Positions 497 through 15,165 of a DNA stretch of 64,000 nt are shown here, piece by piece. Source of the DNA: Candidatus Latescibacterota bacterium (GTDB lineage: Bacteria; Latescibacterota; UBA2968); assembly GCA_965208125.1 (NCBI GenBank), contig OZ242320.1, forward strand, positions 2,432,001 to 2,496,000. The letters run 5' to 3'. The position numbers were made by a program, and so were the translations under genes. Position 1 is the first letter of the stretch, and every line of letters starts with the position of its first letter. The notes beneath the pieces were generated by a model. That model saw nothing but the letters and a program-made list of their open reading frames with translations, did no database searches and was not told the origin of the DNA.

Positions 497-1696
497 TCAA
501 AACTGCACCCACACACCTCTGCCTTGAAGGGCTGGAATGTGCGTATTGAGCGATGTGTCACTCAATGGGTTATTCCGTACCTCAACCACATCTCCACTGC
601 CCAATCCCGTGTTTGCAATTAGAGGTGAAAGATCCGAGATGCTGTTGTCGGAAAGACCCAGCACTGTCAGGTTTGTCAGTCCTGAGAGGGCAGAGGCATC
701 CGAGATGCTGTTGCTGTTAAGATACAGGTCTGTCAGGTTTGTCAGTCTGGAGAGGGCAGAGATATCCGAGATGCTGTTGCTGTAAAGATGCAGCCTTGTC
801 AGGTTTGTCAGTCTGGAGAGGGCAGAGATATCCGAGATGCTGTTGCTGTAAAGACGCAACACTGTCAGGTTTGTCAGTCCAGAGAGGGCAGAGATATCCG
901 AGATGCTGTTGGTGCCAAGATGCAGCTCTGTCAAGTTTGCCAGTCCAGAGAGGGCAGAGACATCCGAGATGCTGTTGGTGCCAAGATCCAGGTATGTCAG
1001 GTTTGTCAGTCTGGAGAGGGCAGAGACATCCGAGATGCTGTTGGTGAGAAGACGCAGTTCTGTCAGGTTTGTCAGTCCAGAGAGGGCAGAGATATCCGAG
1101 ATGCTGTTGGTGCCAAGATACAGGTCTGTCAGATTTGTCAGTCTGGAGAGGGCAGAGACATCCGAGATGCTGTTGTTGTGAAGATGCAGCCTTGTCAGGT
1201 TTGTCAGTCCAGAGAGGGCAGAGACATCCGAGATGCTGTTGCTGTAAAGATACAGGTCTGTCAGACCCGTTGCAAACTCAAGCCCGGTCAAGTCGCTGAT
1301 ATTCTTACGCGTCGCTGCAAGCCTGGTCAAGCTCGCCATCTCTTCTCTGCTGATCGGCGCACTACTCGCCTTGTCCAGGCTGTCTGCGATTACCGCACGC
1401 AGGTTCGCATCGCGAATGGCAACCGAGCCGAAGTAGCTGGTGAAACTCAGAAAATCGCCAAAGCCAACCGCACCATCGCTGTCCAGATCATACTTCGCGT
1501 CATATCTCCCATCGCCCTGACGCGCTCCAAACTGATCTACAAACGCCAAAAAGTCGGCAAAATCCACAACGCCATTGCCGTCAAAGTCGGCGTCTGCCGC
1601 GGTTGGGGTTTGTGCAGAGGCAGGCCCCGCCATCAGAAGCAGGGCGAGAAACACAACAGCGAGCGACCCTTCTCTGTAAAAGTTTTTGCGTTTCAT
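497..1696 (-). CDS. Secreted internalin-type leucine-rich repeat protein with N-terminal EF-hand/dockerin-like motifs
   Basis: Signal peptide (..GPASA-Q); DFDGNGVVDFADF and DLDSDGAVGFGDF Ca-binding-like motifs; IRDANLR..I cap; ~11 repeats of 22 aa (LxxLxLxxNSISDxSALSxLTN). Confidence 0.9.
   Translation of the reverse strand: MKRKNFYREGSLAVVFLALLLMAGPASAQTPTAADADFDGNGVVDFADFLAFVDQFGARQGDGRYDAKYDLDSDGAVGFGDFLSFTSYFGSVAIRDANLRAVIADSLDKASSAPISREEMASLTRLAATRKNISDLTGLEFATGLTDLYLYSNSISDVSALSGLTNLTRLHLHNNSISDVSALSRLTNLTDLYLGTNSISDISALSGLTNLTELRLLTNSISDVSALSRLTNLTYLDLGTNSISDVSALSGLANLTELHLGTNSISDISALSGLTNLTVLRLYSNSISDISALSRLTNLTRLHLYSNSISDISALSRLTNLTDLYLNSNSISDASALSGLTNLTVLGLSDNSISDLSPLIANTGLGSGDVVEVRNNPLSDTSLNTHIPALQGRGVWVQF
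633..1290. repeat. Ten near-identical 66-bp tandem repeats encoding the LRR units
   Basis: TCCGAGATGCTGTTG recurs with an exact 66-bp period at 633, 699, 765 ... 1161, 1227. Confidence 0.95.
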
Positions 1697-1877
1697 GTTT
1701 CCTCTTATACATACGTTTGTGTCAACTTACAAAAAAATTTCTTCTTGTAAAGCCTATTTTAGCACGACGCTGGGAAGCCATCAGCTTTCAGCGATCAGCA
1801 CCCCCAATCACCCCAAGGCCTTATGTTATTTGTTTTGCTAACTGCTGACTGACCGCTAATTGGTATTTAAAGATAAG

Positions 1878-2077
1878 ATCCGAAAAGAGACGCGGAGCCT
1901 GAAGGCTTTCTGGCTATGAGACTTTGTTTGCTCTGAGGTTTGATGCTCAATGGTCTGGTGCTTTGCCGGACGTTATGAGCGTCACCCCCTCAAGAGGATG
2001 GCTTTTACAGATACCATGGTCTGGGCTATGCTCCGTCACCGAAGCAGTCGCACTTGCTCCCCTGTCTCCTTCCGGAT
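1878..2077 (-). ncRNA. Putative ~200-nt structured RNA directly downstream of the DIP1984-like gene
   Basis: Ends pair as a ~20-bp stem (AUCCGGAAGGAGAC.GGGGAGC / GCUCCGC.GUCUCUUUUCGGAU); the G-U wobbles pair only on the minus strand; internal cUUCGg and CUUG-loop hairpins; tract of ~10 CANAGC-like repeats. Confidence 0.55.
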
Positions 2078-2083
2078 TGGTGA

Positions 2084-2623
2084 TTACTGCTCGTCCTGAA
2101 AGGCTACGATCGCTTCAAAAGATGCTGCCCGTAGCTTTCTGTTTAACGCCCTAAAAGTCAACCGTACACTTTCAAGGTCCTGGACGCTGTCGGGATATGA
2201 CAATTCGTTGGGTTCCACAATGTCGCGGTCTTCTTTGTAGATTACCCGCTGGTATGCTGCATCCACGACTTGCGTGTGAAGTTCGCCGATTTGCACATTC
2301 AAGCCTTTTCGCAATTCCAGCGCCTCGTTGAGATTGATGGTGTCGCCATCGTGTTCCATCTGGTGCTGAAAATTGGTCTGCTGAATGGCACTGTTGAGCT
2401 TGCGCCGTTTGTATTCCAGTGCTTTGATCTGGTCACGCACTTCAGTGGTGTCAAACCCGGGACTGGGACGATATTGACCCTCTTCGTCGCGATTGAAAAA
2501 TGTTCGATTGCGATTTTGCCTGGTTTCTGACAGGCAATCTTTCAGGGTTTTAATTCTGGCCTCGTATTCAGCTCTGAGTTCCAGAGCTTCGTAGAGGTAG
2601 AGTTTGTTGTTTTCGTCTGGCAT
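2084..2623 (-). CDS. DIP1984-like coiled-coil protein (two internal half-repeats)
   Basis: Start MPDENN after AGGAAGGAG RBS; repeats LYLYEALELR...LNSAIQQTNF and INLNEALELR...LNRKLRAASF resemble the L-x-EAL-x-x-R ... I-x-x-x-N pattern of the DIP1984 family. Confidence 0.6.
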   Translation of the reverse strand: MPDENNKLYLYEALELRAEYEARIKTLKDCLSETRQNRNRTFFNRDEEGQYRPSPGFDTTEVRDQIKALEYKRRKLNSAIQQTNFQHQMEHDGDTINLNEALELRKGLNVQIGELHTQVVDAAYQRVIYKEDRDIVEPNELSYPDSVQDLESVRLTFRALNRKLRAASFEAIVAFQDEQ

Positions 2624-2790
2624 GTTTTCTCCTTCCTTTCTCCTCCCGTCATTTATGCATTTATGCATCGCTTTGGTGCAGTATCGGCTCTGACAAAGCT
2701 GAAAAGATAAAAGATTCAGAGAATTTGAAATTTTTTTAGAAAAATAAAAAACGGGTAGAGAATTACGAGACTCTCTACCTGTTATGCTAA

Positions 2791-2827
2791 TTTTTCATGG
2801 TGGGTAATACTGTACTTGGACCGGTGA
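2791..2827 (-). mobile_element. Degenerate copy of the tRNA-Val(GAC) 3' end (att-like scar)
   Basis: ATGGTGGGtaATACTGtACTTGgACCgGTGA (2797-2827) matches 15088-15118 at 26 of 31 nt in the same orientation. Confidence 0.65.
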
Positions 2828-2909
2828 TTTTTTACCTGATCGTATGAAAAGTCAGGTTTCTGGAAAGTACCGCTCCTGAATCTAAACCACTCGCATTTTC
2901 TGAGATTCC

Positions 2910-3833
2910 TTATTCTTTTTTCCACGGACCACCGTCTTGCCATACTTGATTGTATTCCTCTCTTCTTGTGGCTGCAAGAAGGGGTGGAGCAAGAAAAGTG
3001 CTCAACGTTTCAATAAGTTCAGGAAGTTCCTGTGGGGCATCTGTCAGGTCGCTCCGTTCAAGAAAACTACGCCACTGCTCTGCTTTCCCCGGATATTCGG
3101 CAAATTGCTTATCCAGAGCGACCGGCTGTTCGTTGGGTAAGGGTATCCTTCGTCGCTCGAAAGTCCCCCGGATGGCCTGAGTTAGCACCAGCCCTTCAAA
3201 AGAAAATGTTCTGGCTATTAGCCAGAGGTCATAGAAATCCTTCATACGGCTATTTTGCATACCCAAGACAACCAGGGCATTCAGTTTTTCGGCGACGACC
3301 GTCTCAGGAGGATAGGCTCTGAGTTCGGGTGCAGGAAAATCCAGCAACCCCGGGTACAGGAGAGTAGTGGTCCTGGGTATTACCACGTCTCCAAATCCCA
3401 CGTCAATTTGCACCTGGAACCGTGCAGTTCCAAGCAAACAAGAGAGACGGATGCGATGACTCTCATAGACTGCATTATCTCGAATGGCTTGGACTCGAAC
3501 ACTTTCAGGGTCATAAAAAAGCCCGTCTGCCACCACATTTTCTCGACAGATTGCTTTAAAGACTTTTGCGATATGGTCATGGGAGGCTTCGCCATGGCCC
3601 AACAAATCCAGGTCTCGAGTTATACGATGAGCACTACCTGTCCAGGCGAAGAAAAGCAGGGCACCTTTGAGGATAAAACTGGAGCGAAATGGAGACTGGG
3701 ACAGACGGTAGAGGAATCTTTCAATGGCATATCGCAAGAAAATCTGATTGGGTTCTTCCCTTTTTTCTCTGCTCAGGTTTAAAAGTCGCTGATGGACGGA
3801 TACAGGTAGATTTTTGGGACGCGTTCTTTTCAT
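2910..3833 (-). CDS. abiEii: AbiEii-family nucleotidyltransferase toxin (type IV TA)
   Basis: YAIERFLYRLS, FILKGALL, R-I-T-R-D-L-D-L, IDVGFGD, ETVVAEKL, NSRMKDFYD; ATGA overlap with the upstream antitoxin stop at 3830-3833. Confidence 0.9.
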   Translation of the reverse strand: MKRTRPKNLPVSVHQRLLNLSREKREEPNQIFLRYAIERFLYRLSQSPFRSSFILKGALLFFAWTGSAHRITRDLDLLGHGEASHDHIAKVFKAICRENVVADGLFYDPESVRVQAIRDNAVYESHRIRLSCLLGTARFQVQIDVGFGDVVIPRTTTLLYPGLLDFPAPELRAYPPETVVAEKLNALVVLGMQNSRMKDFYDLWLIARTFSFEGLVLTQAIRGTFERRRIPLPNEQPVALDKQFAEYPGKAEQWRSFLERSDLTDAPQELPELIETLSTFLAPPLLAATRREEYNQVWQDGGPWKKE

Positions 3834-4435
3834 GCCACGATAGCTTCCATATAGGGCCGCATCACATTGGTCATGCGACAGACCTTTGCGAAGTGCCAGA
3901 GGTCGTCCATTGTGATGCGGCGGTCGCGGATGCATTCTTTCAACGCTTCAAGAGCGATGTCCAGGCCGATTTTGTTGCGGTATTTGAAGCAGTCTGCAAC
4001 TGTTTTGGCGGGGTTAAAAATCTGAACGGGAACGCCTTCAATCTGATATGTCTCGATCCCTTCAGTCAGTGCAACACCGGAGAACCGCATCACCCTCAGG
4101 GGAGGAAATTGCATCTTTGGCTTGGCTGCTCTGCGGTCAATGGCCATCCAGACCTGGTGTGGTAGCTGTGTGCCGATTTCGTGAAAGCTCAAAGCTGACA
4201 GCAGACAGATCACCCCGTGGGGAATGCGCTTTGCTACTTGCGCCAGCCCATAGTGTACCGAAATCTCGGCATTGGCTGCAATGTACAGGCCTCTTCCTTC
4301 CCGTCGCACCAGTCCTTTCTGATATAGCCGACGCAGATATTCGGGATGAAGGCCCCGGGACGTCAGATCGCAAACTCTCAAGAGACCTTGCTGTGCCAGT
4401 TCCAGAACTTGATTTTCTGGTGAATTTTTAGACAT
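3830..4435 (-). CDS. abiEi: AbiEi-family antitoxin / transcriptional regulator (type IV TA)
   Basis: N-terminal wHTH (GLVRREGRGLY), GVICLLSALSFHEI, KTVADCFKYRNKIGLD. Confidence 0.9.
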   Translation of the reverse strand: MSKNSPENQVLELAQQGLLRVCDLTSRGLHPEYLRRLYQKGLVRREGRGLYIAANAEISVHYGLAQVAKRIPHGVICLLSALSFHEIGTQLPHQVWMAIDRRAAKPKMQFPPLRVMRFSGVALTEGIETYQIEGVPVQIFNPAKTVADCFKYRNKIGLDIALEALKECIRDRRITMDDLWHFAKVCRMTNVMRPYMEAIVA

Positions 4436-4440
4436 GTGTC

Positions 4441-4470
4441 ATAGTATATCTATTTATAATTTTTTGTCAA
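4441..4470 (-). promoter_or_regulatory. Sigma70-type promoter of abiEi, probably leaderless
   Basis: Minus strand TTGACA (4470-4465), then TATACT (16-nt spacer) or TACTAT (18-nt spacer), ending 5-7 nt before the ATG at 4435; no RBS. Confidence 0.55.
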
Positions 4471-4629
4471 TATTATTACACAAAAGGCTTATATTATTAT
4501 ATTATTATGTGTCTATACCAGAGTTAATGTGACAACCTGAAAACTGTGATACTGGTTGCCCACATTTTGTTTTCACAAGATGTGCGATGTGGCAATTTCA
4601 GGTCTTTGATAGGATAGAGGAATCAGAAT

Positions 4630-15088: not shown

Positions 15089-15165
15089 TGGTGGGCGATA
15101 CTGGACTTGAACCAGTGACCTCTTGCATGTCAAGCAAGCACTCTAACCACCTGAGCTAATCGCCC
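15089..15165 (-). tRNA. trnV: tRNA-Val(GAC)
   Basis: GGGCGATTAGCTCAGGTGGTTAGAGTGCTTGCTT-GAC-ATGCAAGAGGTCACTGGTTCAAGTCCAGTATCGCCCACCA; cloverleaf with encoded CCA. Confidence 0.98.

Follow-up and report, generated by a model that had tools for sequence, protein, structure and literature searches.

A structured RNA family directly behind a DUF6847-like gene

In a stretch of 64,000 nucleotides (nt) from a Candidatus Latescibacterota bacterium (GCA_965208125.1, contig OZ242320.1, forward-strand positions 2,432,001 to 2,496,000; hereafter the window, numbered from its first letter), we identified an RNA element that represents a new, previously uncatalogued family of covarying structured RNAs of ~180-190 nt, tied to a tandem-repeat subfamily of the protein family DUF6847. 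The element occupies window 1878-2077 on the minus strand, from closing stem to closing stem, as seen by folding, covariance model and covariation. It follows a gene for a 179-amino-acid (aa) helical protein (2084-2623, minus strand). Covariation across the aligned sequences shows a predicted architecture in which a clamp (stems P1 and P1b) closes both a compact 5' domain, built from a GNRA-capped hairpin and two H-type pseudoknots, and a loop of ~70 nt. The best reading of the combined evidence is that gene and RNA form a self-contained, horizontally mobile two-part module. A preliminary description of this DNA, made from the sequence alone, had proposed a non-coding RNA at this position; most of its structural claims held, and several details were revised, as noted below.

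Fold, strand and anatomy of the RNA

The TAA stop codon of the gene (2086-2084) is separated from the first paired base of the RNA (2077) by a 6-base spacer (2083-2078), the distance given in the preliminary description. All parts of the RNA described here lie on the minus strand. RNA positions 1-14 (2077-2064, the 5' arm of P1) pair with positions 187-200 (1891-1878, the 3' arm), and past a short bulge positions 18-22 (GGAGC, 2056-2060) pair with 180-184 (GCUCC, 1894-1898) to form P1b, giving a closing stem of 14+5 base pairs (bp). The minimum free energy (MFE) structure contains 20 closing pairs, in line with the ~20 bp first described. The core of P1 (GGAGAC/GUCUCC) is near-invariant and its outer part varies freely; on the 3' side GUCUC is followed by a U-rich run. 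Two G-U pairs in P1, G6-U195 and G9-U192, would be C-A mismatches on the opposite strand, so that the earlier remark that such pairs are valid on the minus strand only was correct.

Inside the clamp, P2 (2025-2051) comprises a 2-bp clamp of its own (G27-C53, C28-G52) and a 7-bp hairpin (RNA 32-49), detected by RNAalifold and by covariation. Its cap, GUGA at 2036-2039, is by sequence a GNRA loop, and most rows of alignment A2 carry GUGA, GCGA, GAGA or GCAA here. The GC-UUCG-GU tetraloop hairpin that had been proposed is not formed, the UUCG being part of the 7-bp stem. Pseudoknot 1 (1998-2023) interleaves stem A (C55-G70, A56-U69, G57-C68) with stem B (A61-U80 to U65-G76), and pseudoknot 2 (1969-1987) combines stem A (G91-93 with C99-101) with stem B (GACG, G95-G98, with CGUC, C106-C109); both were identified by covariation. 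Thus the CAGA..UCUG and GACG..CGUC stems noticed at the outset do exist, but each belongs to an H-type pseudoknot, of which it forms one of the two stems, rather than to a small hairpin. Between the pseudoknots, the small hairpin CCU-CUUG-AGG described earlier falls in a linker (1988-1997) that differs among lineages in sequence and length (columns 92-126 of alignment A2).

The minus strand folds to an MFE of -73.4 kcal/mol, compared with -56.4 +/- 3.9 for 200 shuffled sequences (z -4.31, no shuffle as good). Folding is good on the plus strand too (z -3.63), and the fold alone therefore cannot settle the strand. We assign the RNA to the strand of the gene because its orientation behind the gene is constant, the P2 cap is a GNRA loop, and G-U cells outnumber A-C cells (84 and 48) in the paired columns of the stems.

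Covariation supports the clamp and both pseudoknots

Homologous loci were collected from species-representative genomes by searching with the protein, which yielded 79 loci from many phyla, as judged by record title, and a covariance model of the RNA was built from 43 of them. Unaided, RNAalifold recovered P1, P1b, the P2 hairpin and one stem of each pseudoknot from the MAFFT alignment of these sequences, with 16 of 27 pairs compensatory; the second stem of each pseudoknot was added by eye before pairs were counted. Of the cells in paired columns of this 43-sequence alignment, 85.9% could pair compared with 74.1% after shuffling, and 29 of 40 pairs had changed on both sides. None of 500 shuffles reached any of these measures, and slid controls gave 34-44%. 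Similar values were obtained from 75 distinct sequences fitted to the model, an alignment that leans towards the model for nested helices: 88.4% of cells were paired (74.0% after shuffling), both sides had changed in 33 of 40 pairs, no shuffle out of 500 reached the observed values, and slid controls gave 33-45%.

Support extends to each helix. In P1, 83.1% of cells are paired and 9 of 11 pairs changed on both sides; in P1b the values are 99.2% and four of five, with A-U replaced by G-C in 10 rows and C-G by U-A in 10 rows. The upper stem of P2 is 98.4% paired, with all five pairs changed. Stem A of pseudoknot 1 (98.2%, two of three pairs) switches from CAG/CUG to CGG/CCG in 7 rows, and all five pairs of its stem B changed (77.1%). 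For pseudoknot 2, stem A is 75.4% paired with two of three pairs changed, and stem B, 84.1% paired with four of four changed, appears as GACG/CGUC, GAAAC/GUUUC and GAUAG/CUAUC. Together with the phasing described next, this covariation across phyla shows that homologues keep the closing stem and the repeat tract, as the preliminary description had anticipated.

A fixed-length tract of phased triplets

The 3' half of the RNA is an A/C-rich tract (1900-1965), assigned as single-stranded, and spacing statistics resolve it into about eight units of 8 nt, whose last three letters are A-R-C, in most cases AGC. Among 49 non-redundant elements the tract between pseudoknot 2 and P1b measures 63-72 nt, and 69-72 nt in 46 of them, with a composition of 36% A, 28% C, 22% G and 15% U. 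These 49 tracts hold 253 AGC triplets, compared with 72.6 +/- 8.0 after shuffling. A spacing of exactly 8 nt separates 72 of 204 successive AGC triplets (shuffle mean 1.4, maximum 6 in 500 shuffles), and 157 of the 204 gaps are in phase (8, 9, 15-17 or 24-25 nt; shuffle mean 7.0). The column consensus, drawn from 50 non-redundant sequences, likewise gives about eight units, every one ending A-R-C. The tract and the units listed for it in the preliminary description were therefore right, while the ~10 degenerate units of 7-9 nt given there become about eight with a period of ~8 nt. Folding of the tract is no better than that of its shuffles (-9.8 compared with -10.7 kcal/mol). What is new about the tract is its strict 8-nt phase, its fixed total length and its conservation across phyla. 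Pairing between the tract and the 5' region of the gene itself was considered and rejected, since RNAduplex on 30 loci gave a mean z of -0.04 relative to shuffled tracts.

The RNA accompanies one protein subfamily

A protein search returned 659 relatives of the 179-aa protein at E up to 0.001 among 801 candidates, many of them 60-70% identical and spread across phyla. The module loci carry the labels Latescibacterota, Desulfobacteria and relatives, Spirochaetia, Verrucomicrobiota, Lentisphaerota-type Victivallales, Kiritimatiellia, Planctomycetota, Acidobacteriota, Gemmatimonadota, Nitrospinota, Chloroflexota and others, together with three archaeal labels. When the 200 nt of the window's element were compared by BLAST with the 400 nt downstream of each gene, a 5' segment and a 3' motif were common to almost all; a 25-nt 5' segment is near-invariant in the family, and the length between the core stem arms is 175-207 nt. 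The covariance model finds the RNA in 74 of the 79 protein-found loci (76 matches), always on the same strand and directly behind the gene, and the five loci without it have truncated genes or contig ends. Across loci the RNA begins 5-48 nt from the stop codon.

The reverse approach, a scan of metagenome contigs with a 19-letter consensus pattern of the RNA, gave at least 80 loci. In 62 of 80, among the matches listed, a gene ends 10-48 nt upstream of the RNA. Twelve of the 80 listed lack the gene although 560 nt or more of sequence lies upstream; 10 of these 12 fail the covariance model and are chance pattern matches.

Linkage is specific to the tandem-repeat subfamily, all 16 loci of which carry the RNA, compared with none by the model at the classical full-length DUF6847 loci L109 and L110, from the same phylum as the window, and L111. 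In the window's phylum the RNA is present in 24 of 151 genomes, one copy in each, and within the genus the module is found patchily, in 9 of 19 other genomes.

Two loci show variation in this arrangement. At one, listed as both L107 and L279 (G150:C158), a full RNA (141.4 bits) lies behind a match of ~110 aa that can be aligned with the first or the second half of the 179-aa protein; the gene there is either naturally single-repeat or truncated at its 5' end. At L031 (G014:C1:2233795-2233936), an insertion of ~140-150 nt separates the stop codon from an intact RNA, and a short separation of gene and RNA is therefore tolerated.

The partner is a predicted self-associating helical protein

The window's open reading frame (ORF) of 194 aa (2084-2668) begins at an earlier ATG than its homologues, which begin at 2623, measure 177-181 aa and cover 90-92% of it. 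Residues 21-103 of the 194-aa ORF match Pfam DUF6847 (PF20935) at 28.1 bits, a marginal pass of the gathering cut-off of 27, and the NCBIfam model DIP1984_fam (NF038048) scores 26.5 bits, below its curated cut-off of 70. In homologues the profile part 58-140 of DUF6847 matches twice in one frame, and the protein is therefore a tandem duplication of that C-terminal part. Direct alignment of the two halves is weakly above shuffles (38 compared with 26.9 +/- 5.2). Fifteen Arg/Lys residues are invariant across 25 diverse homologues, which we count in favour of the platform proposed below.

An AlphaFold2 model of the protein (predicted local distance difference test score, pLDDT, 85.6) contains four long helices together with two beta-hairpins. 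On the predicted fold, the one clear structural relative appears to be 3kdq, from Corynebacterium diphtheriae and of unknown function (Foldseek TM 0.70/0.81; VIA Z 12.9, root mean square deviation (rmsd) 2.9, 152 residues aligned). In both Foldseek and VIA, only 3kdq stands above generic helical matches and no fold of the ToxN/AbiQ type is listed, though a family missing from these lists may still fit. Four copies modelled together are predicted to form a symmetric interface (ipSAE 0.44, best control 0.00), a mark that 20 of 30 solved homo-pairs attained, as did 1 of 23 single chains; at least 68% of contacts agree between runs of this model, with partner pLDDT of at least 74. This predicted self-association may mirror likeness to, or memory of, the solved 3kdq crystal.

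Sequence searches in other collections gave little. The PDB returned nothing meaningful, PHROGs one weak family of unknown function, and the ESM Atlas DUF6847 plus unnamed or Gp157-like helical clusters, which we treat as leads only. The protein was not found in plasmid, phage or IMG/VR viral-contig collections. The literature library searched gave no match for DUF6847, PF20935 or 3KDQ, and for DIP1984 the only match concerns Acinetobacter epidemiology. The name septicolysin, which we take to be tied to the DUF6847/DIP1984 family, occurs, among the matches listed, mostly in work on Acinetobacter plasmids, none of it on function.

Membership in known RNA and DNA element families

As the preliminary description had supposed, the element matches no recognised RNA family. 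A search of the whole window with Rfam 15 at the gathering score found only a tRNA (15092-15165), and the same models found nothing in 12 diverse homologous loci. At E up to 10, window 1600-2900 gave four weak Rfam matches, none over 1878-2077. ARAGORN reported no tRNA or transfer-messenger RNA (tmRNA) genes in 1600-2900, and the Rfam tmRNA models did not match.

Some features invite a reading at the level of DNA, as a miniature inverted-repeat transposable element (MITE), an integron attC-like site or another inverted-repeat element: the ends form a terminal inverted repeat of ~14 bp, and in three genomes of the same genus homology to the window stops exactly at 1878. We regard this as very improbable, and it is largely refuted by the data. 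BLAST of the 200 nt against its own genome returned only itself at a significant E-value, and the covariance model has a sole match in the 5.75-Mb genome (window 1874-2078, 178.5 bits); with one copy also in each of the 24 RNA-positive genomes of the phylum, a MITE or other dispersed repeat was rejected, as the preliminary description had expected. The break at 1878 does not mark the end of a mobile element but reflects the presence or absence of a downstream gene block for a leucine-rich-repeat (LRR) protein in related genomes. Internal stems, including pseudoknots, covary, the GNRA loop is kept, and the excess of G-U over A-C cells given above points to RNA. An attC site has an inverse core RYYYAAC at its 5' end, a core GTTRRRY at its 3' end and an imperfect palindrome of ~60-140 bp. 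The element, at ~200 nt and with internal covarying pseudoknots, reads AUCCGGAAGG... and ...CUUUUCGGAU at its ends, with the conserved core GGAGAC/GUCUCC and no AAC...GTT core sites.

A retron msr-msd RNA was set aside, there being no reverse transcriptase among the window neighbours and no ORF cluster conserved beside the module; reverse transcriptase families are also absent from the 25 commonest Pfam families listed for 150 neighbour ORFs. Known type III toxin-antitoxin systems of the ToxIN kind carry tandem direct repeats of ~34-36 nt upstream of the toxin gene, and that repeat arrangement does not fit an RNA that lies downstream, with units of ~8 nt inside one large fold. A coding reading fails on length differences of 1-2 nt between relatives; open frames on the antisense strand of the element are due to its low U content.

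A phased loop as a candidate protein-binding platform

We propose, with slightly less than even confidence, that the RNA is the 3' part of the transcript of its gene and that its phased loop binds several copies of the protein to form a ribonucleoprotein. In this scheme the RNA would be made as the 3' part of the transcript of the 179-aa DUF6847-like gene, and the folded 5' domain would act as a nucleation or specificity element. The phased loop would then serve as a platform for several copies, or repeat domains, of the self-associating helical protein in an 8-nt register. The outcome would be a defined ribonucleoprotein with an accessory, addiction-like or defence-like role. We infer a ribonucleoprotein because of the phasing, the fixed tract length, the lack of structure in the tract, the tandem-repeat nature and predicted self-association of the protein, and the loss of the RNA in classical members. 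A more specific version, which we consider possible but rather doubtful, is that the 70-nt loop of eight A-R-C units is a molecular ruler for a fixed number of DUF6847-like domains, in a horizontally spreading addiction or defence module outside current classifications.

Several observations weigh against this proposal. The protein has no recognised RNA-binding fold, and 3kdq, its sole structural relative, has no known function. It is acidic (isoelectric point 5.14; 26 Lys+Arg and 33 Asp+Glu), which is unusual for a protein that coats RNA. Its binding to the tract is argued from the phasing, the fixed length and the strict linkage to one subfamily, and is best called putative. No family in PADLOC-DB 2.0 matches the protein at E up to 1, and with no such match a defence role rests on the neighbourhood.

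Exceptions to one RNA per gene point the same way. Among the matches listed, two RNAs have no gene, L221 (149.6 bits) and L153 (65.7 bits). The first (L221:1393-1594) is an intact orphan with no DUF6847-like gene in the 1.39 kb upstream, flanked by a Polbeta-nucleotidyltransferase/HepT pair and an Unstab_antitox/ParE-like pair. On the chromosome of Candidatus Uabimicrobium (L087), one DUF6847-like gene is followed by three RNA copies (3517-3714, 4062-4264 and 4278-4478; 124.5, 106.8 and 114.5 bits), the last two in tandem, and no same-strand ORF of at least 60 aa lies between the three copies. Degraded RNA remnants occur in G006, which has no protein, and in G103, with a protein remnant of 45 aa. 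Given the orphan and multi-copy cases, the RNA may act independently of a 1:1 linkage in cis. The claimed range may also be inflated: the three loci with archaeal labels (L042, L062, L092) lie on short contigs, of 2.3-3.1 kb, and L062, labelled as a Thermoplasmata archaeon, is identical to L047 (Candidatus Desulfatibia) over all bases compared, likely a binning artefact.

The same exceptions bear on a different reading, in which the RNA works in trans and, as a sponge or decoy, draws off some global RNA-binding protein or ribonuclease of the host with affinity for the phased A-R-C/AGC triplets, and the neighbouring protein is a helper or mechanistically unrelated. Orphan and multi-copy RNAs would suit a decoy, the acidic partner would fit, and an unstructured A/C-rich tract of short motifs may resemble RNAs that titrate proteins. 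Strict linkage to one protein subfamily across very different hosts is hard to reconcile with a target that varies by phylum, however, and each of the 24 positive genomes of the phylum has one copy only. We judge action on a host factor improbable.

Transcripts and the 3' end of the module

Relatives that are 88-99% alike occur as assembled contigs in two studies of sponge metatranscriptomes, with four runs between them. One contig, of 759 nt, spans window 1854-2608 and another, of 776 nt, spans 1917-2668; further contigs from these RNA libraries span 1889-2320, 2302-2613, 1849-2088 and 2086-2795. None of the four runs covers windows 1653-1805 or 2826-3000, which is not evidence of absence. 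Contigs bridging gene and RNA give a weak hint of a single transcript that ends just after P1. Assembled contigs cannot show ends, strand or processing, and the libraries may contain DNA; this too counts against the proposal that the RNA is the 3' part of the gene's transcript. Processing of the RNA into a discrete species, as the preliminary description had suggested, is likewise putative. The 776-nt contig (run X18, depth 226) stops at 1917, inside the repeat tract, and continues with 24 loose letters, which we take to resemble sequencing adapter and from which we draw no conclusion; the end at 1917 could be a frequent fragment end or an artefact.

A terminator scan identified a terminator-like hairpin at 2754-2779 (minus strand) that closes the upstream AbiEi/AbiEii unit and sets the boundary, on the upstream side, of the module's own promoter region (2624-2750). 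Behind the gene, the scan found no G+C-rich short-loop hairpin with a U run immediately after it. T is enriched in the 12 nt that follow GUCUC (0.365, background 0.224), and 23 of 71 elements have a run of at least four T there.

These data bear on the possibility that the RNA is a cis-acting element of the 3' untranslated region. It would then act solely on the upstream mRNA, by terminating it in an elaborate way, by stabilising it against 3' or 5' exonucleases or by providing an autoregulatory site, and would form no lasting ribonucleoprotein with a function of its own. The constant position 5-48 nt behind the stop codon on the same strand fits such a role, as do the T-rich sequence after the core of the P1 3' arm, the lack of another terminator-like site behind the gene, and library contigs that end shortly past P1. 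Yet terminators and stabilisers need no pair of covarying pseudoknots, no near-invariant 25-nt segment and no phased loop of fixed ~70-nt length. A clear U run is present in only about one third of elements, and in loci from the Planctomycetota-Verrucomicrobiota-Chlamydiota (PVC) group a co-oriented gene follows the RNA without a U run. Three copies behind one gene in L087, the intact orphan L221 and the insert of ~150 nt tolerated in L031 are further difficulties. We consider service to the upstream mRNA alone unlikely, and we share the early view that so long and complex an RNA is probably more than a simple terminator.

Genomic setting and a possible toxin-antitoxin role

The module's neighbours in the window are AbiEi/AbiEii, the LRR protein and a sulfatase. 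Clustering of flanking ORFs revealed no conserved third partner; beyond the gene and its antisense shadow frames, the largest cluster spans 8 loci. A Pfam scan of 150 of 157 picked neighbour ORFs returned PIN (6), AAA_14 (5), HTH_31 (5), DUF4143 (4) and HTH_3 (3), and also Polbeta nucleotidyltransferase, IS200 transposase, RadC and others. Module loci thus lie in islands rich in toxin-antitoxin genes, a setting that suggests an accessory, addiction- or defence-like rather than a housekeeping role.

This setting raises the alternative of a type III-like toxin-antitoxin or abortive-infection pair, in which free DUF6847-like protein would be harmful and the adjacent RNA would neutralise it by binding. 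Known type III systems use a pseudoknotted RNA as antitoxin, and the module shares several traits with such pairs: a compact two-part form with no other conserved partner, a patchy distribution with wide horizontal spread, and PIN, HepT/MNT, ParE-like, Xre-HTH and AbiE neighbours. The extra RNAs of L087 and the orphan RNAs fit as well, and every RNA-less copy of the gene among the loci compared is truncated or cut by a contig end. Against this, no nuclease or other effector fold stands among the structural matches listed for the protein, the RNA lies downstream rather than upstream, and its repeats are of 8 nt rather than processed units of ~36 nt. The missing PADLOC match and the failure to find the protein in the plasmid, phage and viral-contig collections also argue against it, and we hold a neutralising RNA to be quite unlikely.

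Within the genus, the flanks of the module differ by whole-gene indels, and homology blocks among these genomes begin at window 2795 or 2739. Directly upstream lie an AbiEi-like antitoxin gene (3830-4435, minus) and an AbiEii toxin gene (2910-3935, minus). At four loci of the same genus (L012, L013, L014 and L017), sequence matching ~3830-3870, where the AbiEi gene ends, continues directly with the terminator hairpin, and AbiEii is therefore missing there. On the other side, the LRR protein (497-1696, with dockerin/EF-hand-like N-terminal matches) and its upstream region are absent in three genomes of the genus, where the last base of the RNA abuts sequence at ~380-470 of the window. Short dispersed repeats of ~65-85 nt at 1704-1768 and 1776-1861 have copies at 74-88% identity in the same genome and in others of the genus.

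Loci of the PVC group (L078:3767-4903, L076, L077, L079 and L086) show the order Xre-like HTH, DUF6847-like gene, RNA and a protein of ~380 aa. The family of the latter is large (629 relatives at E up to 0.001) and highly conserved, and it has no Pfam domain. A model of it (pLDDT 86.3) had no Foldseek match at E up to 0.001, and its best VIA match had Z 6.0, rmsd 4.3 and 112 aligned residues. A distant relative (E 1e-7) lies behind the gene-less RNA of L153 (L153:1092-2141). As a third partner this protein was rejected: it is missing from four of five other module-bearing genomes, and the RNA stands beside it in only four of nine Verrucomicrobiota genomes that hold it.

Significance and comparison with known systems

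Few large bacterial RNAs have several covarying pseudoknots, and of the known classes most have proved to be ribozymes, riboswitches or the cores of ribonucleoproteins. The class described here comes with a defined partner from a family whose structure is solved but unexplained (3kdq), and its linkage to that family is the first functional lead for DUF6847. The module occurs in many uncultured phyla and is small, ~750-800 bp in all. No catalogued precedent exists for a clamp that closes a loop of fixed length with triplets phased at 8 nt, and the alignment and covariance model could seed an Rfam family. An addiction- or defence-like role, if true, would add a protein-RNA type to those classifications.

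A close likeness for the tract is the trp leader of Bacillus, a single-stranded RNA with phased G/UAG triplets at 5-nt spacing that is read by TRAP, a homo-oligomeric beta-sheet ring. Both RNAs present many phased purine-rich triplets, here A-R-C/AGC, whose count and spacing would suit the assembled protein, and for our RNA reading by a protein is putative. The spacing here is 8 nt, and the triplets lie in a closed loop of a large folded RNA behind the partner's own gene. TRAP RNA, in contrast, is part of a biosynthetic leader, and the presumed partner here is a helical DUF6847-like repeat protein. CsrB and RsmZ resemble the element as non-coding RNAs with many copies of a short motif that could hold several copies of a protein. 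Their GGA motifs are displayed in hairpin loops, and their partners CsrA and RsmA are encoded elsewhere, whereas here the motifs are unpaired and strictly phased, the core is a double pseudoknot without an Rfam match, and the RNA is encoded with its presumed partner.

With ToxIN the module shares a small protein and an adjacent pseudoknotted RNA in a mobile two-part unit of toxin-antitoxin and defence islands. It differs in the downstream position of the RNA, its single large fold, 8-nt units in place of tandem units of ~36 nt, and a protein in which no ToxN-like fold was seen. Like tmRNA with SmpB, the element has ends clamped in a stem, several pseudoknots, a long unpaired segment and a small dedicated protein; unlike tmRNA, it has neither a tRNA-like domain nor a tag frame, and with length differences of 1-2 nt no frame is conserved. 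Finally, the window's protein shares its fold with classical DUF6847/DIP1984 (3kdq) and passes the Pfam model marginally, but it is tandem-duplicated, falls below the NCBIfam cut-off and is linked to an RNA, unlike the two classical members compared. Set against TRAP, CsrB, ToxI and tmRNA, we rate the gene and its RNA as a new kind of RNA-protein module.

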